In this document: piece by piece, positions 2,059 to 61,249 of the stretch
How the letters are laid out: each line of letters begins with the position of its first letter
Numbering within the stretch: the first letter of the stretch is position 1
Assembly: GCF_022045235.1 (NCBI RefSeq)
Contig: NW_027266308.1
Coordinates: forward strand, 22,382,001 to 22,446,000
Direction of reading: 5' to 3'
Source of the DNA: Haliotis cracherodii
Lineage: Eukaryota
DNA length: 64,000 nucleotides
Notes under the pieces: generated by a model
Databases searched by the model: none
Seen by the model: only the letters and a program-made list of their open reading frames with translations
What the model was told of the DNA's origin: nothing
Translations under genes and position numbers: made by a program

Positions 2059-3568
2059 TGCTGAAAGGCAAAAGAAACGTCTCTTCTGAAAATACTGATA
2101 AAACTTAACAGACACTGGCAGTTACATGTTCTGTGGTCAATAAACTCATTTAACGTTCTACTGCTTCTTTTTGTTGCCTTAAAGTCCATTTAACAATTGA
2201 GTTTAAAATGGAGTGCTTTGCCCAAACGCAGAGGAAAAGTCTTGTCAAAAACATGATGCACGTGCATATCGTGGATGGTATGGGTATAAAAGACACCCAA
2301 AACTGTTAAGCTGGCTTTCGTTGTTTCGATTAATCAGCCATGCCAAGATTATCAGGAAATGAGAGACAACAAGCGATCGGAAGACTGCAAGCAGGCCAGA
2401 GTGCACAGGTCGTTGCAAATGCATTCAATGTCAACGTCAGAACGATATATCGTTTGCAACATCGCCACAACACCACCAACACCACCGACGACCGGCCGCG
2501 TAGTGGTCGTACTAGAGTCACTACTTCCGGACAAGATCGGTTCATGACACGCCAACATCTGCAGAACCGATTCCGAATGGCCACTGAAACAGCTCGGCAA
2601 ACCATTGGCAACCACCAGCGTGCCATCAGTGATCGTACAGTCCGACGTCGCATAACTGCCAACAACATCTCGTGCCACCGTCCTGCCCGTGTACCCTACC
2701 TGAGAGATCGTCACCGACAGGCCCGACTGCAATGGGCCAGGCAGCATCAAAATTGGCGTCAACAGCAATGGAGAAGAATCATCTTCATTGTTTTAAGTTG
2801 CTACTGTGTTTCAACGGTGGTTGGCAGAGCCAGGGTCTGGCGAAGGAGGGGCGAACGTTGTGCTGATACTTGTGTTATGGAACGAGATCCGTGGGGCGGC
2901 CCAAGCATCATGGTTTGGGGTGGAATCGGACTGAACCAGAGAGTGGGACCTGTGGTCTTTAGTTATTGGTCAAGGCAGGGGTAATGGCATCACAGCTCTC
3001 CGCTACATTGACCTAGTCCTCAGACCCCATATCGTGCCTTTTTTTGCCCGTCATCACAACAACACCTTTCAGCAAGACAACGCCCGTCCCCACACTGCCA
3101 GAGTCACCAGGGACTTCCTCCAGCAGCACAACATCCAAATCATGCCTTGGCCTACCCTCAGTCCGGATTTGAATCCCATTGAACACTTGTGGGGTGAGAT
3201 CCAACGCCGACTCAACGACGTACGCCCAAGGCCGACAACTGCAGCAGAACTGCGTGTAGCGTTCCTGGGGATATGGGCCCAGATCCCAATGGCCTTCATC
3301 AACAGGCTAGTCCACTCCCTGTACAGAAGATGTGTGGCTGTAGTCAACGCCCATGGTGGCCACACCAGGTACTGATTTGGAACCCCCCAGCTGTGATGCT
3401 TTCTGGTGCCTCCCCAAATTCACAATTCGCAAAAACATTCCCCAGACTGTTAATTTCATGTGGGTCAAACTCTGACTTTCTCCAATGTCTTTACTTACAT
3501 ATATACGCATTTGAAAATAAAGATATTGATATGATACATCCACATGACGTTTCTTTTGCCTTTCAGAG
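2059..3568 (+). mobile_element. Tc1/mariner DNA transposon (DD34E), full length but inactivated
   Basis: 23-bp TIRs 2059-2081 and 3546-3568 (core CTGAAAGGCAAAAGAAACGTC), TA on both flanks; encloses transposase remnants. Confidence 0.93.
2340..3375 (+). pseudogene. Tc1 transposase, frameshifted near 2960
   Basis: HTH N-terminus, RPRSGR, GGPSIMVWGGI, FQQDNARPH and SPDLNPIEH with 34 residues between D and E. First catalytic motif is degraded (IIFIVLS instead of FSDES). Split across ORFs 2340-2984 and 3034-3375. Confidence 0.92.
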
Positions 3569-20417: not shown

Positions 20418-23400
20418 ATGGAGGACGAACCGCTACTACCGTCCCATGACGGGGAAAGCCGTAGCGGAGAGAAATCCATCGTCAAGAATCTCCTTTTTCT
20501 TAATTTGGTGATGTTCATATTAACGCTTTCAGGCAGCCTATTTATGCCTGTGATGAGTCAGTATTTGTACCATCGTGTATCAGAGGATGTATTCAACCAC
20601 ACTCTTGTCAACATGACCACAACACAACCCTGTTACCGGAACACCTCGAGCCCCGATTATATGCTGCAGGAGAAGGCTCAGCAGGTCACTGCTGAAAAAC
20701 AATTGCAATTCACGATGTTGAAAAGTGCCCTGGCTATCTTCAGTAACATCATGCTGGGTGCTTATTCCGATTCTATTGGTCGAAAGTTCCTGTTTGTTAC
20801 GCCAATGACAGGGCAACTGATAAGAAGCGCCTTCACAACAGTTATCATAGGATGTAGGCTGGACTTGAACTTGTTCTTCCTGTCTGAAGGCATAGATGGT
20901 CTCCTGGGAAGTTATTACGGCATCCTACTCGCGTCCTATACATACACCGCCGATAACACGCCGGCTACAGGTTCCCGTACCATCGGCATCGCTGTCGTCG
21001 ACCTCACCGAGTTCCTAGCCACCTCTCTCATCTCCATAGCCAGCGGATACTTCATCCAGGATGTGAACTTCTTCTACCCAGCTCTCACTGCCACGCTGGT
21101 GTGCATGGTGGCCCTCCTCATAGTCACACTATTCCTTCCGACAAGCACATATCATGTTAGAGATACGGGCTCGACATGTATGAATCCAGTGGAAGGTCTG
21201 AAAAGAGTGTTTGGGTTTTATGTTTTCGACAACAGCGCCTTAAAGAAAGCGTGTTTCATCCTTATTTTGCTTTCCTTTGTGTTTAATGTCATCAGTTCTG
21301 TTGGAGGCTCCAACATCGACACTTTGTTTCTCCTGAATGCACCGTTTTGCTGGACTCCAGAGAAACTTGCATATTACGTCACAGCCTTCACTGTGTTATG
21401 TCCGCTGATAGGAGTGCCCTTAACCAGGCTGTTTCAAGTGTGCCTGATTGACGAGATCATTGCCGTGATTGCAACATCTGCAACCGTCGCAAGCGATGTC
21501 ATACACTCATTTGCGTCGACGGACACCATGATGTATATAGGTGAGTGTCGATTTAATCACGGTTATGCTATTAGAAGTGGTCTTATTATGATAATGACTA
21601 TTATGCCGTATTTTTGACGTCCACCGACGTTGTATTGCTGAAATATTTTTTAAAAACTCACTCACGCACTATAAGTGCAGTAAAGAGTTAAGAAAAACGC
21701 TGATTCCTTAGGGTTCGTTCAGTTGTAGCCTACACAACGAATCAATCAATGTGTGATAAATATTACAACACTGACTATATACAGTGCATACACTTGTTGC
21801 AGTCGTCGGGGTGACGTCAATCGGCAGCACGCTTTCAGGGATCACCCGAGCCATCATGTCCCGCATGGCGCCACCCAACAGACAAGGTAAGACACACCAT
21901 GAGACCGACAGTACTGAAACAGGTCACTGTTCGTCAGTATAGCTGTACTATTGCTACAGGTCACTGTTCGTCAGTATAGCTGTACTATTGCTACAGGTCA
22001 CTGTTCGCCAGTATAGCTGTACTATTGCTACAGGTCACTGTTCATCAGTATAGCTGTACTATTGTTACATGTCATTGTTCGCCAGTATAGCTATACTATT
22101 GTTACATGTCACTGTTCGCCAGCATCGCTGTACCATTGTTACATATTCCCTGTCAGTCAGTATAGCTTTGCTATTGTTTCATGTTCTTAGTTTGTCAATA
22201 TTGCTTTACTATTGTTACATGTTCCTAGTTCGCCTGTAGAGCTGTATTATTGTTCCAGGGTCACTGTTCGCCAGTATAGCTGTATTATTGTTTAAGGGTC
22301 ACTGTTCGCCAGTATAGCTGTATTATTGTTCCAGGGTCACTGTTCGCCAGTATAGCTGTACTATTGTTTAAGGGTCACTGTTCGCCTGCATAGCTGTACT
22401 ATTGTTCCAGGGTCACTGTTCGCCAGTATAGTTGTATTATTGTTCCAGGGTCACTGTTCGCCAGTATAGCTGTACTATTGTTCCAGGGTCACTGTTCGCC
22501 AGTATAGCTGTATTATTGTTCCAGGGTCACTGTTCGCCAGTATAGCTGTACTATTGTTCCAGGGTCACTGTTCGCCAGTATAGCTGTACTATTGTTCCAG
22601 GGTCACTGTTCGCCTGTATAGCTGTACTATTGTTCCAGGGTCACTGTTCGCCAGTATCGCGGTGGTGGAGACGATCTGCTCCCTGGTTGGCTCTCCCTTG
22701 TTCAGCAGGGTCTACCAGGGCACGGTTGTCATTTGGCGAGGCCTGGTCTTCATTGTCATGGCTGGAATGCATGTTGTCGCTGCCGTCATTCTCGTGTAAG
22801 TATCTCAAAATGTCAGCTACTTACGAACAAAGTAAAACTAATTATGTAATGTGCAAGTGAATATCGATAAACGCCGCACCAGCAACATTACAGCTACATT
22901 CGCGGAAACTTGACATATGTCATAATTTGAAGAAATTATTACAGCTACACTCGCGGAAACTTGACATATGTCATAATGTAAAGAGATTATTACAGCTACA
23001 TTCGCGGAAACTTGACATATGTCATAATGTAAAGAGATTATTACAGCTACATTCGCGGAAACTTGACATATGTCATAATGTAAAGAGATAATTATTGCTA
23101 CTCTCGCGGAAACTTGACATATGTCATAATGTAAAGATATTATTACAGCTACACTCGCGGAAACTTGACATATGTCATCATGTAAAGAGATTATTACAGC
23201 TACATTCGCGGAAACTTGACATATGTCATAATGTAAAGAGATTATTACAGCTACACTTGCGGAAACTTGACATATGTCATAATGTAAAGAGATTATTACA
23301 GCTACATTCGCGGAAACTTGACATATGTCATAATGTAAAGAGATAATTACAGCTACACTCGCGGAAACTTGACATATGTTATAATGTAAAGAGATTATTA

Positions 23401-24273
23401 CAGCTACACTCGCGGAAACTTGACATATGTCATAATGTAAAGATATTATTACAGCTACTCTCGCGGAAACTTGACATATGTCATCATGTAAAGAGATTAT
23501 TACAGCTACATTCGCGGAAACTTGACATATGTCATAATGTAAAGAGATTATTACAGCTACACTCGCGACAGGTTGACATATGTCATAATGTAAAGAGATT
23601 ATTACAGCTACACTTGCGGAAATTTGACATATGTCATCATGTAAAGAGATTATTACAGCTACACTCGCGGAAACTTGACATATGTCATAATGTAAAGAGA
23701 TTATTACAGCTACACTAGCGGAAACTTGACATATGTCATAATGTAAAGAGATTATTACAGCTACACTCGCGGAAACTTAACATATGTCATCATGTAAAGA
23801 GATAATTACAGCTACACTTGCGGAAACTTGACATATGTCATAATGTAAAGAGATTATTACAGCTACACTCGCGGAAATTTGACATATGTCATAATGTAAA
23901 GAGATTATTACAGCTACATTCGCGGAAACTTGACATATGTCATAATGTAAAGAGATAATCATTTTTACAGCTACACTTTCGGGAACTTGTCATATGTCAT
24001 AATGTATTTAGATATGGATACAATAAAGTACGATGCCTTTTAACACAAAACAATCAGCATCAATTTGAAATGTTGCCCACATATACAAATGTGAACTTTC
24101 AAAGGAATCAAACAAAGATTATCATATTACGAAATGATAAGATATAGAAATATATAACAAATGCCAATATCTCTCCCAGGGTATTCATCTTTGTATCTCG
24201 GCCAGTGAGGGAAGAACAGAAGAGGATCAGGGCATTGAATGTTCAGGAGACGGAGGAGGACACGAGGAGCTAA
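20418..24273 (+). CDS. SLC46-family MFS transporter, paralog 3 (~485 aa); exons 20418-21540, 21803-21886, 22639-22795, 24180-24273
   Basis: MEDEPLL, GAYSDSIGRK, TYTADNTP, PFCWT; GT-AG junctions; 84/157-bp exons; open to TAA. Confidence 0.9.
21919..22660 (+). repeat. Tandem array (~20 x 37-38 bp) of the intron 2 acceptor plus exon 3 start of paralog 3
   Basis: Unit TACTATTGTTCCAG|GGTCACTGTTCGCCAGTATAGCTG; the last copy is the real exon 3 start (GSLFASIA). Confidence 0.95.
22887..24005. repeat. 51-bp minisatellite, ~22 units, in paralog 3 intron 3
   Basis: Unit ATTATTACAGCTACACTCGCGGAAACTTGACATATGTCATAATGTAAAGAG; 17-aa period in the ORF track. Confidence 0.95.
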
Positions 24274-31859: not shown

Positions 31860-32225
31860 TAAGTTATATAATGCATATAACCTTCACCTCAGACGTTGTG
31901 TATTGGACATGACCTTCACGTCATAAATAGGTTATAATCGACATAACCTTCACGTCACTTGTTGTATATTGAATACAACCTTCACGTCACTTAAGGTATA
32001 ATTGATTTTACCTTCACGCCACAAATATATTATAATGGACAAAACCTTCACTTCACCAAAGGTATAATGGACATAACCTTCCCGTCGGTATTTGTATATT
32101 GCATATTAACCTCCACGTATGTATTATGGATATAACCTTGACGTCACAAATTGTATAACTGATATCTACTTTACGTCAGACATGGCATAATTGATCTAAA
32201 AATGACGTCGCAAATGGTATAGGAA
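31860..32225 (+). repeat. Degenerate 32-bp minisatellite (ATAACCTTCACGTCACAAATGGTATAATGGAT)
   Basis: Same family as 42880-44230, 53040-53600 and the inverted block 54080-54260. Confidence 0.8.
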
Positions 32226-34542: not shown

Positions 34543-35775
34543 GGCCAAAAGAAACGTTACCAACATTAACTGATTTGCTACTTTGAAACAAAGATGCTAA
34601 CCTGTTCAAAAACAGTAAAGAGAAAGGTTGCCATTAACATGAATTGCTCCAAGATGACCATTACCAGACTGGTCGCACGTCTCCGGCTGACTGGCAGAAC
34701 CGCAGACAGACCACGGAGTGGCAGACCAAAGGTCACGACCCCGCAGGATGACCGCTTTTTACGGGTACTTCATCTGAGGAACAGATTTCTTACTGTGACG
34801 TCATCAGCTGCCAACAGCTTAGGACATCCGGTCAGCAGACAAACAGTGACCAGACGACTACGACATTATGGTCTCGGGGCTTATCGCCCTTTCAAGGGCA
34901 TGACCTTGACCCGTCAACATCGACGTGCCAAATTGACATGGTGCAGGCAAACTCAGCGATGGCAACAAAGGGAATGGCGGCGAGTGCTGTTTAGTGCTCT
35001 TCAAACCTGATGGGCGGACGCGAGTTTATCGACTACGTGGTGAACATACGGCTCCTTGTTGTGTCCAGGAGGTGGATGGTGTGATGGTCTGGGGCGGCAT
35101 TTGCGGGGACGAGAAGACGGAACTTGTCATCATCGAAGGCAATCTGACAGCACAACGCTACATTGACAATATCTTACGGCCAGTGGTTCTTCCTTTCATC
35201 CAGCGTCAACAACGGACGGTGTCCCAACAAGATAACGCCAGACCCCATAAATCCCGTATTACTAGAGACTTCCTCAACGCCAACAACGTGACTCTCCTGC
35301 CGTGGCCAGCTCGATCACCAGATCTGTCACCCATAGAACATCTCTGGGACAAGCTGGGGCGTCGTCTTCGGAAACGTCAACATCCTCCCTTCACGAAACA
35401 AGCGTTGATCGTTGCCCTCCGTGAGTAATGGAATCGGATACCTGCAGAGGATGTGAGGACGCTTGTCTACTCAGTTCGACGCCGCATTCGAAGATGCATT
35501 GCCGCTCATGGAGGTCATATCCCGTATTGAACGGTCTGGTCCGTCGTCACCTTAAAGTTGTAACCAATGTTGTTGATCGAATACTGGACGAATGACCCCT
35601 TGTCAATAAATGTCCCTGTTGGAGGTCAAGGACTTTGTTGTTGAATTAGTAAATTCGCATTTTACTGTTCTGAATGATGAATTTCTACAATACAATTGTT
35701 ATTGCTGGTTCAAATTGTGTTGGTCATATTCTATCCTAGAAATATCGTTGGTAACGTTTCGTTTGGCCGTCAGTA
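34536..35775 (+). mobile_element. Second Tc1 transposon, 5'-internally deleted and degraded, inside (TA)n runs
   Basis: ~29-bp TIRs ACTGA(G/C)GGCCAAA(A/C)GAAACGTTACCAAC. Transposase pieces 34594-35010 and 34994-35428 contain RPRSGRP, VMVWGGI, QQDNARPH and SPDLSPIEH, with a frameshift and a premature stop. Confidence 0.9.
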
Positions 35776-36191: not shown

Positions 36192-37593
36192 GTTCCCTCT
36201 TCGCCAGTGTAGCGGTGGTGGAGACGATGTGCTCGCTGGTGGGGACTCCTATCTTCAGCAGCATTTACCAGGACACGGTCGTGTTGTGGAGAGGGATGGT
36301 CTTCATCTTCTTGGGAGGCACACATGTTGTCGGTGCTATTGTTCTTGTGTGAGTATTTTATGCACTTCTTTGTCCATATTCAATCAATTATTTCTCGTTT
36401 ATTTCGTCATCTGATGTTTGATTGAGAAGGATGTTTACGCAGTTTTAATAATACCCTACCCATGACAATTCTTGGTACGAATAAAATCACCAGCATAATT
36501 TGCTGATCGTAAGAGGCGACAAAATGGGTCGAGTTGTCAGGAACGGTGATGTGCTTCATTGCGTGTCATCGAACCCCGACGGCGTGGAAAGTCGCTCACA
36601 ATATCAATCACTGGATTATCTGGACTTTACAGGCCGCCGTCATACAGCTGGAATATTTCAAACAAACAATATTGCTGTCATATCAGCCAAACTTTTAACC
36701 ACTAGGCTACTCGATCTCTCAATTCAGGAGATGAACGATACATACTGGTACATGAGGTTTCCAGGGAACGACTTCTTCTGTCATCATCAACCCGCATCCT
36801 GGACCAGAAAGGGGAAAACATCGTTACAAATAATATATATACTTTTCACTTGCGATATACAATTGGCTACTGAACACATATTTTACCTGTGTAATTCCAG
36901 TCGCGAAGGTGCACGAGCATGGGTTAAAATGTCAAATAATCACAACATGGTCTGCTCCCTTGTTATGAATCTAGGTGAAATACATGAAGGTCAATAAACT
37001 TGTACCGGAAAGTGAATAACTGAATTCAAATGCAGGGCGCGTTCTAGGTATGTATCGTTGTTCGTGAGAGTTTATCACATTACACTTTAATCCGTTAGAG
37101 CATAATTCATACTTACAAAGCAAATGTCACCAGTGAATGAATGTTTCAGGCTCTGCAAATGATCATTTTACAAACTGTGCGGAACATAAAGACCTATATA
37201 TAATTGTAAATAATAAATATTCTCTGTGCGGACTACACAAAGTATTAACACTGATATATTTTCACTGGGTAATCCCAAAAGGATGCAATTGTCACGCCTA
37301 TTCTTTGTTGCAGGATCTATATATTCTTGTCAAAACCAATCAGACATAACGCCGATGTTCCGCAGGCTTCGCGCGATGTTCAACAGGTTCAACCAGGTGT
37401 TCCACATGTTCAGCACGTGGTCACAGTGCACAAAGGGACACAGACAGACATAACCGGAGATCCAACAATGCACGAGCATGCGCGGTCGGTGGCAGGCCAG
37501 GAGGTGGCAGAGATCACCCAGGCCAGCATACACGTGCACGTTCAGTCGGCGTATGGCGAAGAGGATGGACACTATATTAAAACAGAGGAGTAG
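36192..37593 (+). pseudogene. SLC46 paralog 5: only exon 3 (36192-36348) and exon 4 (37314-37593) present
   Basis: Very similar to paralog 6 exons 3-4, with intact splice sites and frame; no exon 1 or 2 upstream. Confidence 0.85.
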
Positions 37594-38945: not shown

Positions 38946-41900
38946 GATAAATAGATTGTCTTTATTTCCTCCAGTATTGAAGATACATTATATAAGATAG
39001 ATACATGAATATAGATTAAAACTATACAAAGTCGTTACATGCCAAAGTGAAGGGGGTATGAACAAATGATGCCACTTGTTAACATAATGAGAGAACAGTA
39101 ACATAGTTTCGCCCCATATCTCAAGCTCAAGGTCTTTCATGCAATCAGGCAGTCCGCCTAAGAGGAAAGACATGATAACATTATCATCATTCGACCAAAG
39201 GTCAACAAAGGAATTCGCATCCGTGATATCAAAGATATTTTCGAACATTTCATTTCTTTCTTGCATATTAATAGTACATGACATAAAAATGTGTTTGACT
39301 ATGTCATGGGCAACAGTTCCGTAATAACACTCTTGCGATTCTATCTTAGAGCAGCCTATTTTGACCATATTAGACAGAACATAAAACTTTGAAGGAAATC
39401 GTAAAGAAAGTTGCCAAATCCTGTGTTGACCTTCTGACCTGATACCAGTATATCTTAACAGGTCCTGTCGGTCACACATTTGTTTCACAATCCTTGCAGA
39501 ATCTGCATTTCTTACCTTTTCATCCACAAGACTAGTCCGTTTACATTTACTGGGAACATTTCAATATCTATTACGATATCTATGTAATCATTCAAGACAT
39601 GGAAAAGAACGTATTTATGTACCAGGCGCAGCATGTTGAAACAGGGAGATTTATAACACATTTTGGCAAAATCTGGTTGACATTTGTATTGCCCAAGTCT
39701 GCCAATCAATAGTTGTTTGAAATAGAAGTTAAGCTAGATCGCCACAGTTTACCAAATAAGATCAGGGCTTGTTTATCAATGTATGGCTGAATGGTTATAA
39801 GATCTAGACTACCCGGTACAACTTGGCTTGATGTAAGTCTTGGTAGGCTCTGTACTATTTTACTGAAGTAGCGCTGTGGTATTTCCAGCAATTCATACCC
39901 TCTACCAGTAAGTTGCCCCCATACATTGCATCCATATAAGGCACATGGTAAGATAACTCTCTGTAGTATTCGCACAGCCGCAATTGGGTTCAACCCTGCG
40001 AAATACAAACCATTGTTATGGTTTACATTAAAAAAGTCTTTTCAGTTTTTCGCATGCAATACGCGAGCGTTTGAGTGTTGAGATACTGTTACTAAGGCAT
40101 GCCCCAGCATATGTTACAAAATTCTTGTGTGGCAATTCTATCTTTCCACAGGAAACATGAGGGTACGGCACATTATATTTACAGTGCGAAATTACTACGA
40201 CTGCACTTTTATTCACATCATAAACCAAACGCCATCTACACGCATAATTGTGAGCAATATCTAACAGGTTTTGCAGTGCTGATGGAGAGCTACTAACAAT
40301 GGTTGTATCGTCTGCTAGCAGTTGACCTGCATAGTGACCCCAAGGTAAGCGGAGGCCGTAGCCAGAGCAATCAAGCGTGCAAATGAGATCATTGATATAT
40401 AATGTGGAAAGCCAGGCAGATAATACAATACAATACAATACAATATAGTTTATTAAAGTCTCACCATTTGTACAGCAGGGGTTTAAATAAAGCATTTTAA
40501 ATATCTAAAAACTTAAAAGTACAAATGCCACCTAAGGGGGTTACGAGAGACTATATCTTACACAAATGTAAGTGCTTTATAAAATAATGTAAAATGAGAT
40601 AAAGTTATACATAATATTATAATCTTAGTCATAATTTAGGAATATAAATATTAAGAATGTAAATGATAAGGTAAACAGTTAAATATATTGTTAAATTATA
40701 CATAAAATAATTTTCTATGCAACAACATTTTGAAGCACATGCTTCCTAATAGTGGTATGTTACAATGGTTATTTAAAATGGTGATATCTACAGGTGTAGG
40801 ATAGAACATATTCTTAAGATAAGATGTACGAATATCGTCATAAAAGGGACAGTGTAAAAGAAAGTGGGTTTCGTCTTCAACTTGGTCTGTACAATATTTA
40901 CAAAAGCGTTGTGTAGCCGGGATAGGAGGGGAGCAGTATCGGCCCGTTTCAATCTCCAATTTTAGGTAACCACATCTCAGGGAAGCAAGTATCCATCGCT
41001 GGTATCTTGGGAGTCGAGTGTAACTCTCAGTGAACAACTCAGTCTTAAAAAGTTTAAAAGTTCTTAACTTTGGTGTTGACTGGACGCTGTCTTTCCATCG
41101 CTGTTTGTCAAATGGAGACAAGTTTGGATAAAATGCTATAATAATTTAAAACCCACGGAGATGACTTATCAGAGGTATTTAGCAAATCTGTCAACTCCAG
41201 ATCACTGTAGATACGTTGTAGCTTTTTCTCCCAGGACTTTCCTCTTGTAAGTGACCACTGGTGTATCCTGTAGGTCAGTCTTGTCGTGGGCATTCATTGT
41301 AACCTACACCACAGTCGGGCAGCCTCCATATACAGTTTAGACTGCCAGTCCAACCACCCATCCCATATCTCCTCGAACGGCGGTGTTACATGTATTTCTT
41401 GAAACTCCGAGGAAGACACGGCATGCTCTGTTCTGTATAGTGTACACTTCTTTATACTTGTTAACTCCCCACAGACCAGAACAATAGGTTAAAACAGGTT
41501 GAACGATGCTTTCATAAAGTCGGGTAAAAACATCAAAGTGCATATCACCGCAGGTGTAAAGCTTGTGACAAAGATATCTTAGAGCACGTGAAGCAGATGT
41601 GACCAGTTCTTTAACAGCATAGCGTAAGTCACAATGCACGTGTAGCCACAAACCTAGATAACGGTAGCTGTCTGCGTAATCGAGTGTCACATGGCCACAG
41701 TGGAAAGTCCCGTTATGTTGAGGCACGCTTTTCCTCCTGAAATGTACAGCGCTCGTCTTGCTTGCGTTTATGCTGACTCGCCACTTCTTTGTCCACAGAT
41801 AAAGTATGTTCAATATCATCTGAAGACTTTCAGGATCAGGGCTGAGTAAAACAATGTCGTCTGCATATAATAAAACGGAAACATTAAAATTGTCAATCTG

Positions 41901-42834
41901 TATACCGCAGTTGCTCTCTTTCAACTCCTCAGCAAGATCGTTAATGTATATAGCGAACAGCGTGGGTGATAAAAACACATCCTTGCTTCACACCAGATTC
42001 AACAGGGAAGATGTCCGTCTCATAGTTGTTTACTTGCACAGAACATAGAACGTTGTCATACAGCGATCTGATAGCTTGGAGAATATTGCCTGATATGCCA
42101 TAGTCCATGAGCTTAAACCACAACAAGTCTGTTTGCTGTTTTTTTCTGTTATTTACAATACTATATAATATATAAACTATATACATGATCAAGGCAGGAC
42201 CGTCCTCTTCTAAAACCGTTTTGCTCGTCGACCAATATGTCCCGGGACTCGAGATATTTACACAATCTGTGATTGATGATGTCAGCGTATATCTTGGAGG
42301 GTATAGATAAAATGGTTAGTGGTCTGTAGCTTAGAGGGTCACGTGGGTCGGCGTCTTTACTCTTCTTGGGAATGGGCTTTATTTTACCATGGTTCCAGAT
42401 GCTCGGCACATTACCTGTACTAAAACTGTGGGAGACGAGTTGATACATTAACTCAGCACAAACATCATTTTTGAGTACAACGCTCGGAATGTTATCAAGT
42501 CCCACCGCCTTTCCAACCTTAGCTCGATTAATAGCACTCACAACTTCTTCCCTAGAGATCGGGTCATTCAGGACAGGAATAGTCTCTGATTCTACTTGAA
42601 TGTTGCTAAACTTCTGTTGCACATTACTTAGATGTTCGTCGTTAAAATCCCCAGAATCACTTGTAGGGTTGTACAAAGACACGTCCTTGACCAACACCTT
42701 GATAGATAGAAATACATCTGAGCTGTAGCGTATGTAACATATGATTGCATGGACGAATAGGCAATACGCAAAACACGCCATGTTTTACCAGTTATACCCA
42801 TGTCATATAGCTTAAGGAATAAGCTATGAAGCCA
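38946..42834 (-). mobile_element. 5'-truncated degraded non-LTR retrotransposon (RT domain to 3' end), interrupted by a second LINE
   Basis: RT motifs KLYDMGITGK, QGVGQGRVL|SAWL, YINDL, LLADD, ILPCALYG; AATAAA near 38960 (-); 55-bp flanking direct repeats. Confidence 0.85.
40422..42675 (-). mobile_element. Nested CR1/L2-like LINE fragment with (TATTG)n tail
   Basis: KAVGLDNI, YRPLTILS, EQNGFRRGRSC, GVKQG, LLYADDIVL, LEIETGRY, EDETHFLLHC; AATAAA followed by (TATTG)4 at the 3' end; frameshifts. Confidence 0.88.
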
Positions 42835-42879
42835 TAACTCCTAATTCCTTATATATACAGGAGAAATATAATAAGTTCT

Positions 42880-44230
42880 ATAATGGATATAACCTTCACG
42901 TCAGACAATGTGTAATGGATATAACCTTAACGTCATACATTCTATAACAGATATAATCTTCATGTCACAAATGGTATAATGGACATAAAATTCACGTCGG
43001 AAATAGAATAATTGCCATAACCTTCACGTCACAAATTGTATATTTGATACAACCGTAACGTCACAAATGGCATACATGTATTGACGTAACAGATGATCTG
43101 ACGGACATAACCTTCACATCAGAGTTGAGGAGAGGTAAATTGGGTTTAACGTCGCAATCAAGATTAATGCACTGACATAGCGACATAGGCGGACGTTCTA
43201 CCATTAGACCACGAAGACGGTCTTCACATCAGTAGTCGTATAACTGACGTTAACCGCCACGTCACACATGGTATATTGGATCTAACTTTCACGTTATAAG
43301 TTGAATGATGGATATAACCTCGACGTCACGAATTGCACAATTGATATAAACTTTACGTCATACGTGATAAAATGGATCTAATCTTCACGTCGCAAATTGT
43401 ATAATGGATATACCTTTCACGTCAGAAGTTGTATGAAAGATATAACCTTCACGTTACAAATGGTATAATGGGCATAACACACACATCACAAATAGTGTAA
43501 TGGATCTAAGCTTTATGTCACAAATGGCATAATGGGTATAACCCGTACGTCACAAATAGTGTAATGGGTCAAACCTTTATGTCACAAATGGTATTATGGG
43601 TATTACCCGCACATCACAAATGATATAATTGGTAGAACCCGCACATCACAAATGGTACAATGGGTATAACCAGCACATCACCAATGGTATAATGGGTATA
43701 ACCTTCAATTTACAAATGGTATAATGGAGATACAAACCATTATGTCACAAATGGTATTGTGGGTATAACCCGCACGTCACAAATGGTATAATGGATATAA
43801 CCTGCACATCACAAATGGTATAATGGGTATAACCCGCACATCACAAATGGTATAATGGGTATAACCTGCACATCACAAATGGTATAATGGGTATAACCCG
43901 CACATCACAAATGTTATTAAGGGTATAACCGGCACATCACAAATGGTGTAATGGATCTAACCATTGTGTCACAAATGGTATAATGGGTATAACCTGCACA
44001 TCACAAATGGTATAATGGGTATAACCCGCACATCACAAATGGTATTAAGGGTATAATCCGCACATCACAAATGGTGTAATGGATCTAACCATTGTGTCAC
44101 AAATGGTATAATGGGTATAACCCGCACATCACAAATGGTATATTATATATAACCTTCAATTTACAAATGGTATAATGGAGATAACCATCGCGTCCCAAAT
44201 ACACTTTCACGAACATAAGCTCCACGTCAT
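42880..44230 (+). repeat. 32-bp minisatellite, ~38 units, most homogeneous at 43600-44150
   Basis: Unit ACAAATGGTATAATGGGTATAACCCGCACATC. Confidence 0.9.
43123..43221 (-). mobile_element. 99-bp internally deleted tRNA-type SINE inside the minisatellite
   Basis: 11-bp TSD CTTCACATCAG (43112-43122, 43222-43232); head GTGGTCTAATGGTAGAACG. Confidence 0.7.
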
Positions 44231-53039: not shown

Positions 53040-53600
53040 GATACCGTTCCCGTCACAAATAACATTTAGTGGCTTATATCCTTCACGTCACAAATAATAT
53101 ATGGATATTTTGTTCCGTCACAAATGGAGTTTAACGATTATATCCTTCACGTCGCAAATAGTGTAATGGATATAACTTTAACGTCACAAATAGGGTAACA
53201 ATTGATATATAACTTTCCCGTCACAAATGGTACAGTTGATATATCACTTTCACGTCACATATAGTACAATGGGTATTTTGTAACGTCAATAACAAGGTAT
53301 AATGAATATATCCTTCGCGTCGCAAATAGTATACTGGATATAACTTTCACGTCACAAATAGAGCATCATGGATATATGACCTTCACGTGACAACTGGTAC
53401 AAGGGATATTTTCTTGAAGTCACAAATGGGGCATAATTATTGAATATATCCTTCGCGTCGCAAATAGTATAATGGATATAACTTTCACATCACAAACAGG
53501 GTACAATGGATATATGCCTGTCACGGCACACATTGTGAAATGGATATTTTCTTGACTTCAATAACAGGGTATAATGAATATATACTTCACGTCGCAAATA
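53040..53600 (+). repeat. Degenerate 32-33-bp minisatellite; inverted units at 54080-54260
   Basis: CTTCACGTCACAAAT cores on +; ATTTGTGACGTGAAG cores at 54132-54182. Confidence 0.8.
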
Positions 53601-53970: not shown

Positions 53971-54603
53971 GAAGAACTGCTAGCATACAATTACATACTT
54001 TCACACTAATCAATCATGTGTCACCGTGGGCGATTCATTTTTGTGTGAATTTCTTTATATGTACTTCTTGTACACTCGTGAATAGTGTGACGTAAAATAT
54101 ATATACATCATACAGTTTATGTCCACTTGAGAATTTGTGACGTGAAGCTTATGGACTCCATTATACAATTTGTGACGTGAAGTTGATATCCATTATGTAA
54201 TTAACGATGTGACGTTTATGTCAATTATGCAATTTGTGACGAAAAGGTTATGTTAATTTGATTTTTTTATTGATATACGTATCTATGCTTACACTGCTAA
54301 CAACACTCCTCCCAAGAAAACTAGGACTATAGCAATATATGTATATCATTGTGGATGTTTACAGATATGATAAGCACATCGGGGTTATCAGTTATCTGTA
54401 AATCAAAGTACACACACAGCATAACGCTCTATACACCTTTTACATGAACACAGCCTAGCCACTTGGACGCCGTCCTCTATACCTTGTGTGTTAAGTTGCT
54501 GTATACGGTGATGACGTGGGTGTTCATCGTCGTTGCATGTACTTGCGACCCCATCTTCAGTGGGGCCCCGGGCTAACGAACACCCTCCCACACAACCTTT
54601 AAC

Positions 54604-57600
54604 ATGAGTGTATATGACAAGCAGACCCGTGGCCGGGGCACGGAGACGTTCCCATTGCTGCCCAAGCCTGGAGGTCAAAGCCTTAACATTCGGAATCTCG
54701 TCATAGGAAACGTCGTGGTATGTCTATATTTCATAGCAACTAATTTCCATAATCCTACAATGGACCAGTATTTATACAGACGGATGACAGAAAAGGTGTT
54801 TGGAAATGAAACTCACCATGACTCTGTTAATCAAACCTGCTATGTAAACAAGTCAGATAAACATTACCTTCTTCAGGAGAAGGCTCAGCAAATGGCATCA
54901 AGGGCACAAATGTATTTCACAGTGGCCCGGGGTATATTTGCAGTTCTGAATATCGTATTCGTTGGAGCCTATTCTGATTTTATTGGTCGGAAAGTGATGT
55001 TTGTTGTGGCCATGACAGGTTGTATAGTGAGATACTGTACACTGACCGCCATCATCTACTGGGAACTGGACTTCAACTACTACTTCATTGGGGAGATAAT
55101 CTCCGGTATAACGGGTTACGACTACTCCTTCCTCCTTGCGAGCTATGCCTACACCGCCGACAACACTCCTCCCAAGAAAACCAGGACTATAGCAATAGCC
55201 GTTCTTGAAACAACTCTGAGTCTTGCGAATGCTGCTTCCCAAACGGCAAGTGGATTCTTCATCCAGCGAACTGGATTCCTCTACCCTTCGTTCACCTCGG
55301 TCATATTGATGTTACTGGCGGTCGTGTTTGTTCTTGTGTGTGTCACGGAGACTCTGCCGCGATCAGAAGTGCAACAGAAAGAGTGTATTGGTCCCCGCAA
55401 AGGCATCAAAAGAATTGTTGGATTTTATCTATTTGATGACACCAAACAGACCCGTCTCCTGTTTATATTAGCTTTGGTGACGTACCTGTTCTTCATCTTG
55501 CCTTCGAGTGGTGTATCCAACACTGGAACGCTGTATGTGCTGAACAAACCATTCTGCTGGACTCCTGAAACGATTGGGTATTATACAATGGCGGGGACTG
55601 CGCTGAAGCAGGTGTTTGGTGTGCCGCTCATTAAGTTCCTCCAACACTGTATCAGTGATGAGATCATTGGAATAGCCAGCTCTTTCGTGATGGTGGCAGC
55701 GTATACTCTCCGTGGGCTGGCGTACACAGACTGGATGATGTATGGGGGTAAGATGCAGGAGAAACATCATCACATGATAATGGATGAACAATCTTTTAAA
55801 ACAAATTCCCCAAATGTAAATCCAACTTGATTTGGGGCAAAGTAGATCACTAGAGTCGTCTTATATCATGCTCATGTGATCATAATATGTGAGCGTGTGT
55901 TTAATCGCTGCTCATTCTATCAAACACTAGAATCCAAGATTTATCTTCGATTCACCAGGCCGACGTGTAATGGCTAAGATATCGCTGACTTTGACATAAA
56001 ACCAACATTCACTCACTGACCTCAAATGCATACCTTAATAAGGAAAACCTCATACTGGTAACATAATGTTAATGTGGTTGTGATAAAGAATTTTTTAAAT
56101 CAGTTGCAGGACTGGAGGCTTTCACGTTTGCGATTTCCCCGACGGTTCGAGCCATCATGTCCAGAATGTCACCAAAAGACAGACAAGGTATTAATCATCA
56201 AAAGTACTGAAATACAACATTGTTAAGTATGTCTATCTTCGAATTCTATCAAAGATATGGTATTGTGAAGAGGCATCAGCATATTCAAATACCTAACAAG
56301 TACCCATACCATACCCCCAATGCTTATCAGAAGAACCTTCTTAAGTGGGGATTCAGTTGTTACAGTAACCTTATTGACCCTGACTAAGGTCACGTGGATC
56401 GCATTATTGGCATAAACTACTTGATTGTAAAGCTATTCACATGCCGCAGTGATAAAGCAAGGATATTGCTGACTTCGGGGCAAATCAACTTTCACTAAAC
56501 GTACATGTACTTGGACATGTATGTAAAATCATAGGAAATGTTGTTTTTTTATTTGATGTTAATGTCACTGATACTTAGCCACAACTAGAGTCTTTGATAC
56601 AATTATTTGTTTGATTTGTGCTTTCTTGGTTTTTTGTCTTGTGACAGGTTCTCTCTTCACGTGTCTGATGCTGATAGGGAGAGTGCTTACATATTCATGT
56701 CTTGTGACAGGTTCTCTCTTCACCTGTCTGATGCTGATAGGGAGAGTGCTTACATGTTCATATCTTGTGACAGCTCTCTCTTCACCTGTCTGATGCTGAT
56801 AGGGAGAGTCCTTACATGTTCATGTCTTGTGACAGGTTCTCTCTTCACGTGTCTGATGCTGGTACGGAGAGTCCTTACATGTTCATGTCTTGTGACAGTT
56901 TCTCCCTTCATCTGTCTGATGCTGGTAGGGAGGGTCCTTACATGTTCATGTCTTGTGACATGTTCTCTCTTCACCTGTCTGATGCTGATAGGGAGAGTGC
57001 TTACATATTCATGTCTTGTGACAGGTTCTCTCTTCACCTGTCTGGTGCTGATAGGGAGAGTGCTTACATGGTCATGTCTTGTGACAGGTTCTCTCTTCAC
57101 CTGTCTGATGCTGATAGGGAGAGTGCTTACATTTTCATGTCTTGTGACAGGTTCTCTCTTCACGTGTCTGATGCTGATAGGGAGAGTGCTTACATGGTCA
57201 TGTCTTGTGACAGGTTCTCTCTTCACCTGTCTGATGCTGATAGGGAGAGTGCTTACATTTTCATGTCTTGTGACAGGTTCTCTCTTCACGTGTCTGATGC
57301 TGATAGGGAGAGTCCTTACATGTTCATATCTTGTGACAGGTTCTCTCTTCACCTGTCTGATGCTGATAGGGAGAGTGCTTACATTTTCATGTCTTGTGAC
57401 AGGTTCTCTCTTCGTGTGTCTGATGCTGATAGGGAGAGTGCTTATATGTTCATGTCTTGTGACAGGTTCTCCCTTCACGTGTCTGATGCTGATACGGAGA
57501 GTGCTTACATATTCATGTCTTGTGACAGTTTCTCTCTTCACGTTTCTGATGCTGGTACGGAGAGTGCTTACATGGTCATATCTTCGGAAAGAGACGCCAA

Positions 57601-60600
57601 GCCGCAAAGACCTAGCACCACAGACATGGAAACTGATAACCCAGGTGTCCTCAATACATTGTTTCGCAATTATATCTCCCTGATACACACTGATACTTTT
57701 GATAACAATAACAAGTATAACAGTACATAACAGTATAACAGTCCAGATCCCTGATGGTTAATTCTGACTCTAACGCCGATAGACAAGGGCAACACTATGT
57801 TTGTTTATAAGCACTGAAAATAATACTTTCCTAACATTTCATATTTTCATCTTTATCCGATAGGACCCCTACGGATACCGTTTTCAATATGTCAGCTTTA
57901 TTTAGCCAAAAACAATACTCATAAATGACAGGTTCTCACTTCTTGAATGGTTACATCATAGGACAGCTTCTATATAGGTTAAGTCTTCTGTCAGGTCCTC
58001 CCTTGGTTATATCTTCTGTCAGGTTCTCTCTTGGTTATATCTTCTGTCAAGTTCACTCTTGGTTATATATTCTGTCAGGTCCTCTCTTGGTTATATCTTC
58101 TGTCAGGTTCTCTCTTGGTTATATCTTCTGTCAAGTTCACTCTTGGTTATATATTCTGTCAGGTCCTCTCTTGGTTATATCTTCTGTCAGGTCCTCTCTT
58201 GCTTATATCTTCAGTCAGGTCCTCTCTTGGTTATATCTTCTGTCAGGATCTCTCTTGGTTATATCTTCTGTCAGATCCTCTCTTGGTTATATCTTCTGTC
58301 AAGTTCACTCTTGGTTATATATTCTGTCAGGCCCTCTCTTGGTTATATCTTCTGTCAGGTTCTCTCTTGGTCATATCTTCTGTCAGGTTCTTTCTTGGTT
58401 ATATCTTCTGTCAGGTCCTCTCTTGGGTATATCTTCTGTCAGGTACTCTCTTGGGTATATCTTCTATCAGGTTCTATATTTGTTACATCTTCTGTCAGGT
58501 TCTTTCTTGGTTATATCTTCTGTCAGGTTCTCTCTTGGGTATATCTTCTGTCAGGTTCTCTCATGGGTATATCTTCTGTCAGATTCTTTCTTGGTTATAT
58601 CTTCTGCCAGGTTCTCTCTTGGTTATATCTTCTGTCAGGTTCTCTCTTGGTAATATCTTCTGTCAGGTTCTCTCACGGTTATATCTTCAGTCAGGTTCTT
58701 TCTTGGTTATATATTCTGTCAGGTCCTCTCTTGGTTATATCTTCTGTCGTGTTCTCTTTTGGGTATATCTTCTGTCAGGTTCTCTCTTGGTTATATCATG
58801 TCAGGTTCTTTCTTAGTTATATCTTCTGTCAGGTTCTTTCTTGGTTATATCTTCTGTCAGGTTCTCTCTTGGGTATATCTTCTGTCAGGTTCTTTCTTGG
58901 TTATATATTCTGTCAGGTCCTCTCTTGGTTATATCTTCTGTCATGTTCACTCTTGGTCATATCTTCTGTCAGGTTCTTTCTTGGTTATATATTCTGTCAG
59001 GTCCTCTCTTGGTTATATCTTCTGTCATGTTCACTCTTGGTCATATCTTCTGTCAGGTTCTTTCTTGGTTATATCTTCTGTCAGGTCCTCTCTTGGTTAT
59101 ATCTTCAGTCAGGTCCTCTCTTGGTTATATCTTCTGTCAGGATCTCTCTTGGTTATATCTTCTGTCAGATCCTCTCTTGGTTATATCTTCTGTCAAGTTC
59201 ACTCTTGGTTATATATTCTGTCAGGCCCTCTCTTGGTTATATCTTCTGTCAGGTTCTCTCTTGGTCATATCTTCTGTCAGGTTCTTTCTTGGTTATATCT
59301 TCTGTCAGGTCCTCTCTTGGGTATATCTTCTGTCAGGTACTCTCTTGGGTATATCTTCTATCAGGTTCTATATTTGTTACATCTTCTGTCAGGTTCTTTC
59401 TTGGTTATATCTTCTGTCAGGTTCTCTCTTGGGTATATCTTCTGTCAGGTTCTCTCATGGGTATATCTTCTGTCAGATTCTTTCTTGGTTATATCTTCTG
59501 CCAGGTTCTCTCTTGGTTATATCTTCTGTCAGGTTCTCTCTTGGTAATATCTTCTGTCAGGTTCTCTCACGGTTATATCTTCAGTCAGGTTCTTTCTTGG
59601 TTATATATTCTGTCAGGTCCTCTCTTGGTTATATCTTCTGTTGTGTTCTCTTTTGGGTATATCTTCTGTCAGGTTCTCTCTTGGTTATATCATCTGTTAG
59701 GTTCTTTCTTGGTTATATCTTCTGTCAGGTTCTTTCTTGGTTATATCTTCTGTCAGGTTCTCTCTTGGTTATATCTTCTGTCAGGTTCTTTCTTGGTTAT
59801 ATATTCTGTCAGGTCCTCTCTTGGTTATATCTTCTGTCATGTTCACTCTTGGTCATATCTTCTGTCAGGTTCTTTCTTGGTTATATCTTCTGTCAGGTTC
59901 TCTCTTGGTTATATCTTCTGTCAAGTTCACTCGTGGTTATATCTTCTGCCAGATCCTCTCTTGGTTATATCTTCTGTCAGGTTCTCTCTTGGTTATATCT
60001 TCTGTCAGGTCCTCTGTTGGTAATATCATCTGACAGGTTCTCTCTTGGTTTTATCTTCTGTCAAAGTCTCTCTTGGTTATATCATCTGTCAGGTTCTCTC
60101 TTGGTTATATCTTCTGTCAGGTTCACTCTTGGTTATATCTTTTGTCAGGTTCACTCTTGGTTTTATCTTCTGTCAGGTTCTCTCTTGGGTATATCTTCTG
60201 TCAGGTTCACTCTTGGTTTTATCTTCTGTCAGGTTCTCTCTTCACGAGTCTGATGCTGGTTCAGGCAGTGTGTACCCTGTTGGGAACCCCGGTGTTCAAC
60301 TCCCTATACCAGGCCACTGTTGAGGTGATGCGAGGGAGTGTCTATCTCGTCATGGCTGGTCTACAACTGCTCTCTGTCACTGTGTTCATGTGCGTATACA
60401 CCAAAGCACTGCCCAGCACCTGAACCCAATGTTAAAAAAGACTATTGCACAAGCTATAATGAACTAAGCCTTGAGGGTAATATACCACAGAAAAACAGAT
60501 GAGGAACATAATAATCCTCTCCACATAAGTATAAGCGACAACACCCTTTCCATAATCATTAGAAATCCCTGCTGTCCATTCTACGATTCCAAACATTTTA

Positions 60601-61249
60601 TAAGTACATGCATGTATGTGTTCATGAATCACTTTGCAGCATAATGACAGCAATTTCAGAACAGTTAATCAGGTGAACTCTGTCTATATACCGTATCGTT
60701 CTGTACAATGGACTCCAATGGACTCGCTGTATTATCACTATTTGATAGTTTATTCCCAAACCCATGCTCATCATATATAGCTAGAATCGTACAATCGACT
60801 CTGCCTTCAGAAGCTATTTCTTATGAATATGGAAAGGGTTTTGTCGCTCATATTAAGTATGTTGATATTGTTTTTTATGTACATACATCTACGACCTGGG
60901 TAATCGCTAATTAATAAATTGATATTGATAATAAAACTGATTAAGCAGACTGGAAATGTGGTCCTGCTTCATTTGCCTCATCAAACGTACTTGTCATGTG
61001 TTTGTCCATTATGATTTCAGAGTGTTCGCATGTCGGTCCCGTGGTGCTGAACACGGCATATATAATGAAGAAGAAGTGACGATACAGGACAGTGGCTCTC
61101 GGGCATATTCGTCACCGGGTCTGTCGGCGTCGTTTGAGAGGAGCGGTTCACACGTGCAGTCACGTGGCGATCTAATATCACAGCCAATCAGGAGCAGCGA
61201 TCATTATATATGTTCCTACTCGTATTCTTCCCAGGATTCTCTGCCCTAA
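54604..61249 (+). CDS. SLC46-family MFS transporter, paralog 7 (~537 aa); exons 54604-55747, 56104-56187, 60233-60389, 61021-61249
   Basis: ETFPLL, GAYSDFIGRK, AYTADNTP, PFCWT; 84/157-bp exons; GT-AG junctions; open to TAA. Confidence 0.9.
56630..57585 (+). repeat. 63-bp tandem array (~15 units) derived from the paralog 7 exon 3 acceptor junction
   Basis: Unit contains TCTTGTGACAG|GTTCTCTCTTCACGTGTCTGATGCTG; up to 27/28 identity to the first 28 nt of exon 3. Confidence 0.93.
57925..60242 (+). repeat. 28-bp tandem array (~82 units) of the paralog 7 exon 3 acceptor
   Basis: Unit GGTTATATCTTCTGTCAG|GTTCTCTCTT; the last unit is the true acceptor (AG 60231-60232). Confidence 0.95.

Follow-up and report, generated by a model that had tools for sequence, protein, structure and literature searches.

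We analysed a 64,000-nucleotide stretch of Haliotis cracherodii DNA (positions 22,382,001 to 22,446,000 of contig NW_027266308.1; hereafter the window), which lies inside a cluster of MFS transporter genes. One of these genes carries a 63-bp minisatellite in its second intron, for which an original prediction, made from the letters of the window, had proposed a role as an alternative last exon. We find that the units of this array are copies of the gene's own exon-3 acceptor and exon start, an arrangement known from amphioxus as a mirage minisatellite, and that the main transcript contigs are spliced past the array to the real exon 3.

The host gene encodes an SLC46A3-like MFS transporter with four exons and a spliced translation of 537 amino acids. 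The protein has an MFS_1 domain, 12 predicted helices and close named relatives, with 98% identity to its SLC46A3-like counterpart in H. rufescens. Its name is a database annotation label, and proton-coupled transport and the substrate may be regarded as putative only. In the model of the host protein the last two helices span residues 406-438 and 445-480, and exon 3 opens the first of these, helix 11. Among the SLC46A3-like transporters of Haliotis it is one of at least 24 paralogs, counted as SLC46-like exon-3 copies within 264 kb (22,282,001-22,546,000 of the contig), and exon 3 is 157 nt long in every copy. The features of the gene and of its second intron are as follows, where the numbers X5, X7, X15 and X16 denote individual runs.

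54604..55747, + strand: coding exon 1, with an MFS_1 match (E = 4e-13); joined to exon 2 in four of four runs
56104..56187, + strand: exon 2, with GT..AG joints and read cover in four of four runs
56600..56647, + strand: unique polypyrimidine tract and AG ahead of unit 1, with the longest AG-free zone (57 nt)
56635..57584, + strand: 63-bp minisatellite in intron 2 (15.1 copies, 92% matches), taken as the older mirage tier
57585..57725, + strand: spacer with the stop codon of the original prediction (57681-57683); absent from the run X5 allele
57741..57826, strand not assigned: fragment of a high-copy dispersed repeat, with a summed depth of up to ~39,000 in run X16 and of hundreds in runs X5, X7 and X15
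57926..57942, + strand: lone decayed acceptor copy between the arrays, identical to the unit junction at 16 of 17 positions
57977..60242, + strand: 28-bp minisatellite of 81 copies (18 nt of intron end and 10 nt of exon-3 start), taken as the younger mirage tier
60233..60389, + strand: real exon 3 (157 nt, helices 11-12), which accounts for the contig loose ends behind 56673 in four of four runs
61021..61249, + strand: coding part of exon 4 up to the stop; the spliced 537-residue translation matches XP_071081259.1

The boundaries of exon 4 were set from the translation and the protein match, with exon-level read placement covering the other exons. The position of exon 2, the 63-bp period and the reading frame that stays open from unit 4 to the TGA at 57681-57683 had all been read correctly in the original prediction, and the array, now measured at 56635-57584, ends 2,649 nt ahead of the real exon 3 (60233), in line with the predicted distance of about 2.6 kb.

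Origin of the repeat units

The 63-bp unit consists of about 19 nt of intron end followed by about 44 nt of exon-3 start. Unit 1 is identical to the exon-3 junction at 44 of 50 positions, and the consensus unit matches the exon-3 start at 33 of 45. A derivation of the second half of the unit from mid-exon 3 by deletion was considered and dropped, as the unit aligns straight to the first 45 nt of exon 3. These alignments show the unit to be copied from the acceptor and beginning of exon 3 itself, a point that the original prediction had missed. Because the unit copies the beginning of exon 3, where helix 11 is encoded, the units share the exon-3 phase, a GSLFT-like peptide and much of their hydrophobicity.

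An AG is present in 14 of the 15 units. The predicted acceptor in exon-3 phase in each unit therefore stands for most of the array and fails in two places: unit 6 has no AG, and the AG of unit 3 is out of frame and leads to a stop after six amino acids. Unit 3 is 62 bp long, which is a net loss of 1 nt and not the 2-nt deletion described before. The 63-bp units carry distinct variants, and among the candidates scored across the species' own 1.18-Gb genome the array was matched at one locus only. At the peptide level, the repeat consensus is uniform within each species and differs between this genome and H. rufescens. With units made of intron end and exon start, a minisatellite unit size, homogenised copies and a splice signal kept in most of them, the array has the structural features of a mirage.

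Between the 63-bp array and the real exon lies the 28-bp array, the last copy of which is the real exon-3 acceptor. The compound array thus ends in authentic exon 3, whereas the 63-bp tier taken alone does not reach the exon, because a spacer of 392 nt and the 28-bp array lie in between. Counted by homology, the look-alike AG acceptors number 84, with 13 in the 63-bp tier, one in the single copy between the arrays and 70 in the 28-bp tier. The 28-bp array also contains an internal duplication of 894 nt, within which 545 nt are exactly identical, and an upstream AG at 60149 would lengthen exon 3 by 84 nt in frame and free of stops.

Unit 1 differs from the other units in having the longest pyrimidine tract. 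Its distance from the exon-2 donor is 460 nt, and intron 2 measures 482, 418 and 752 nt in three paralogs. This paralog-like distance, together with the tract, makes it likely that the tract and AG of unit 1 are the ancestral exon-3 acceptor.

Splicing and coding potential of the array

Nineteen runs contain the host gene, none of which is recorded as RNA, so that the RNA type was guessed. We examined the exon-2 joints in four of these runs, from four studies, using assembled Logan contigs. Exact GT..AG joints and empty introns identify the four as spliced material. In all four, the main contig runs from exon 1 through exon 2 into 28 letters that fit unit 1 and then continues as the real exon 3. 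A joint from 56185 to 56646, as reported by the mapper, was rejected as false for this reason; the apparent connection between exon 2 and a unit is a mapping artefact that arises because unit 1 is homologous to the exon-3 start. Regular splicing, a further property of mirages, is therefore kept in the main contigs of four of four runs. Among the records listed, no contig passes from exon 2 into a unit and stays within the repeat sequence.

The frame of exon 3 is open from unit 4 (56836) up to the TGA at 57681-57683. Splicing to the acceptors of units 1 and 2 would lead to a stop at 56791 after 48 and 27 amino acids, respectively, while with the 11 in-frame acceptors of units 4, 5 and 7-15 the tails would be 282 to 51 amino acids long and contain 1-12 units. 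The predicted ladder of 2 to ~12 repeats thus exists on paper, where in-frame repeats replace the last two helices, with 11 rungs and a range of 1-12 units.

An open frame of this length is no more than chance would give, since few single-base changes of the consensus unit create a stop (6 of 189) and the probability of finding no stop in 17 distinct variants is 0.58. A second frame on the + strand and one on the - strand are open in the consensus unit too. Read in the exon-3 frame, the 17 variants comprise 14 non-synonymous and three synonymous changes, compared with 4.7 synonymous ones expected without selection. H. rufescens and this genome disagree at 4 of the 21 residues of the repeat-peptide consensus, at none of the 53 residues of exon 3 and at 8 of 537 in the whole protein. 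The repeat frame also has three different 3' ends, in this genome, in the H. rufescens model (through a frameshift in unit 8) and in the run X5 allele. The repeat frame is under no detectable purifying selection, and neither its stop nor its C-terminus is conserved.

On their sequence, the unit acceptors look usable. Their pyrimidine fraction is 0.65-0.80, compared with an average of 0.60 for the 21 exon-3 acceptors of paralogs. Units 2-15 also have a branch-point-like motif at -22. Signals that would end a transcript or define an internal exon are scarcer. No canonical poly(A) signal (AATAAA or ATTAAA) was found in 56601-60300, where just two weak variants occur, at 57653 and 57920, and no donor-like site with seven of nine U1 matches was found between 56648 and 60232, the score that the real exon-3 donor reaches.

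The repeat peptide has a hydropathy of 1.4-2.1 in a 19-residue window. A match of the repeat peptide to PF22408, a viral capsid domain, was discarded as an artefact of summed repeats, since no single stretch passes. At the protein level, H. rufescens RefSeq holds two models of the gene, X2 (537 amino acids, normal) and X1 (XP_048258929.1, 575 amino acids). When both forms were folded with the same 25 relatives, the mean pLDDT (predicted local distance difference test) was 61 for model X1 and 73 for the normal form. The tail of model X1 is mostly below 55 and its C-terminal half is low; its repeats are predicted as helical with low confidence, and no homologues back the tail, which makes the fold weak evidence either way. 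The proposed membrane-helix character of the repeats agrees with their hydropathy and with the helical prediction, and is held back by the low model confidence.

A search for further proteins with a repeat tail found none among shorter proteins and only XP_048258929.1 itself among those of near length (the best 8,000 candidates scored in each case). For the host gene itself, one protein was found on the contig of the window, the 537-residue form.

Interpretation and comparison with known boundary repeats

We consider it probable that the array is an intronic minisatellite of tandem copies of the exon-3 acceptor and the first 44 bases of the exon, that assembled transcripts skip it, and that its hydrophobic frame is an unselected inheritance from helix 11, making it a silent or nearly silent mirage. 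The origin of the units, the skipping in the main contigs and the neutral spectrum of variants are direct observations. Several points weigh against this reading. Run X5 yielded three array contigs of depth 6-10, one of which extends from the last unit into 57726-57810, while the unique part of intron 2 is uncovered in that run; run X15 yielded one array contig of depth 3.9. These contigs may represent a minor spliced last exon or intronic reads collapsed over the copies. XP_048258929.1, an automated model, has the form foreseen in the original prediction and consists of exon 2, eight units and a frameshifted tail. Furthermore, Logan contigs drop rare forms, which limits the exclusion of minor isoforms, the selection test on the repeat frame is weak with n = 17 variants, and the donor scan is crude, given that the real exon 1 and exon 2 donors score six of nine and ten sites with this score lie in 56648-57976.

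The array contigs and the automated model would fit a leaky mirage, in which a minor share of transcripts joins exon 2 to an array unit, unit 1 being the likeliest, and is terminated by a weak poly(A) site within the intron, giving an unselected truncated transporter or a lower output. Leakage of this kind is compatible with the silent or nearly silent mirage that we favour, and we hold it to be possible, if rather doubtful. The unit acceptors look usable for it, the H. rufescens model X1 describes such a splice, and the array contigs of runs X5 and X15, with the array-to-tail link and the uncovered unique intron in X5, are what it would leave behind. Yet array contigs occur in two of six RNA-like runs, with none in runs X1, X2, X9 and X7 among the records listed, and the X5 array-to-tail contig ends in a high-copy element. 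Missing cover on 57585-57716 and 57836-57976 in runs X5, X15 and X7 was not used as evidence. For the predicted spliced transcripts that enter the array there are low-depth array contigs and a gene model in a sister species, and no listed record joined to exon 2. As for model X1, it could be a product of mis-mapping, since over the first 26 bases a true exon-2/exon-3 junction read has a single mismatch to unit 1. The mapper itself gave such a false joint, and a gene predictor could presumably be misled likewise. The 537-residue form, as the one protein found for the gene on the window's contig, also speaks against leakage.

The functional isoform ladder of the original prediction, a selected alternative last exon that adds 1-12 extra membrane helices, is a good deal harder to sustain, and we judge it very improbable. 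It draws on a period divisible by three, the frame open from unit 4, the hydropathy of the repeats and their predicted helices, and the array recurs in the sister species H. rufescens, where it is modelled as coding. Against this, transcripts use the real exon 3 in four of four runs, the variant spectrum is neutral, the best acceptor reaches a stop at 48 amino acids, neither peptide nor end is conserved, canonical poly(A) signals are absent from the interval scanned, and the one protein found with the tail is a RefSeq model whose fold is of low confidence (itself a weak point). A related proposal is that a stranded mirage has by now become a real alternative last exon, with the last two helices replaced by an allele-dependent number of 21-residue membrane repeats. 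We regard this as very unlikely; should the isoform prove real and translated, it would directly exemplify how a repeat at an exon boundary turns protein-coding, caught in the act.

Least probable of all, in our estimate, is that the arrays were inflated or misjoined by the assembly. The internal duplication of the 28-bp array and the differing 3' borders in other individuals would fit such an error, but the 63-bp units carry distinct variants and the array is seen again in runs X5, X15 and X16, as contigs, and in the model from H. rufescens. In the run X5 contig, 57584 is joined to 57726 with 24 other letters in between, and run X16 has a different border, where 57525 is joined to 57797. The haplotype variation observed concerns this 3' border, in X5 and X16.

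For the silent or nearly silent mirage we propose the following course. A 63-bp piece of the junction would have been amplified first, by slippage or unequal exchange, and its copies homogenised within each lineage. The spacer and a later round of amplification, this time of a 28-bp piece of the exon-3 junction, would then have moved the body of the exon downstream, to 3.6 kb from the ancestral acceptor. Faced with at least 84 look-alike acceptors, the spliceosome may settle on the last by exon definition, since that copy alone appears to be followed by a good donor, at a distance of 157 nt. Splicing may occasionally slip into the array, and the resulting products would be truncated or end in a junk tail.

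Mirage minisatellites have been described in amphioxus (Adh3, troponin C, the globins BflGb6 and BflGb9, and PGBD5) as tandem copies of an intron end and exon start with units of 10-160 bp, and are reported not to disturb splicing (PMC3087553, PMC3902484). The amphioxus papers propose, and do not show, that a mirage may become coding sequence. The abalone array resembles those described there in its units of intron 3' end and exon 5' start, in the splice signal carried by many but not all units, in normal splicing and in its 63-bp unit, which falls within their size range. It differs from these accounts in occurring in a mollusc, in carrying a 63-bp and a 28-bp tier at a single acceptor, with at least 84 decoy AGs, in the in-frame period of the 63-bp tier and in having an automated coding model in a sister species. 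As the 63-bp tier is 2.6 kb from the exon, its use would give a last exon rather than a longer exon 3. The abalone array is a real feature, and likely a tolerated repeat, as a mollusc instance of a kind known from lancelets. No report of mollusc mirages or of an abalone SLC46 expansion was found in the titles and abstract openings searched, which mostly came without subscription journals.

The 37-bp variable number tandem repeat in intron 7 of human F7 offers a second comparison, as its unit spans the exon boundary and its pseudo-sites are described as usable but normally silent (PMC1557585). F7 has its repeat on the donor side and uses the first copy, as expected from scanning, whereas the abalone array is on the acceptor side and the last copy is used. 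Simple scanning from the exon-2 donor does not predict this use of the last copy. The array is a good natural test of 3' splice-site choice, in which the last acceptor prevails over at least 84 look-alikes, among them the one that has the likely ancestral tract. Internal tandem repeats also occur at exon-intron boundaries of human duplicated genes, some with documented alternative transcripts (PMC2812944). The likeness lies in variable repeats at boundaries within a recently expanded paralog family, and the difference in the documented alternative transcripts, which for the abalone array are a prediction. Mirages can also lead read mapping, and perhaps annotation, to report isoforms that do not exist, of which model X1 may be a case.

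Other arrays and gene copies in the cluster and beyond

Arrays that copy an acceptor were found at two of the 24 exon-3 acceptors of the cluster, with periods of 28, 38 and 63 bp, two of which break the frame. The second site belongs to the paralog that begins at 20418, on whose exon-3 acceptor a 38-bp mirage of 19.5 copies spans 21922-22657 of the window. Intron 3 of the same paralog contains a 51-bp array of 21.8 copies (22887-24006), which by eye matches no exon boundary. A family of 32-bp repeats recurs in the window at 31867-32221, 42876-44200, 53075-53600 and 54132-54258. Broken frames at 2334-3375, 34570-35428 and 40028-42784 resemble, in their translations, pieces of Tc1/mariner transposase and LINE (long interspersed nuclear element) reverse transcriptase.

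Several gene copies in the cluster are incomplete. A partial duplicate at 36192-37590 of the window consists of paralog exons 3 and 4, and no exon 1 or exon 2 match was found upstream of it. Near 70217, beyond the window, exon 3 of a paralog fails to align at the expected acceptor and its exon 1 match is short, so this copy is possibly decayed. A copy of about 50 nt from host exon 1 (from near 55150-55200) lies at 54284-54333, 300 nt 5' of the start codon.

Outside the cluster, a genome-wide control search with P450 returned near-full-length single-frame matches at 13 of the 30 loci fetched, a count from which no rate was derived. At one P450 exon, the end of the match is overlapped by a 31-bp array of 4.3 copies with 99% matches (C1:73,240,762-73,240,894). 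Read on the coding strand, this array appears to consist of the exon end and its GT donor, and it is likely a donor-side mirage.

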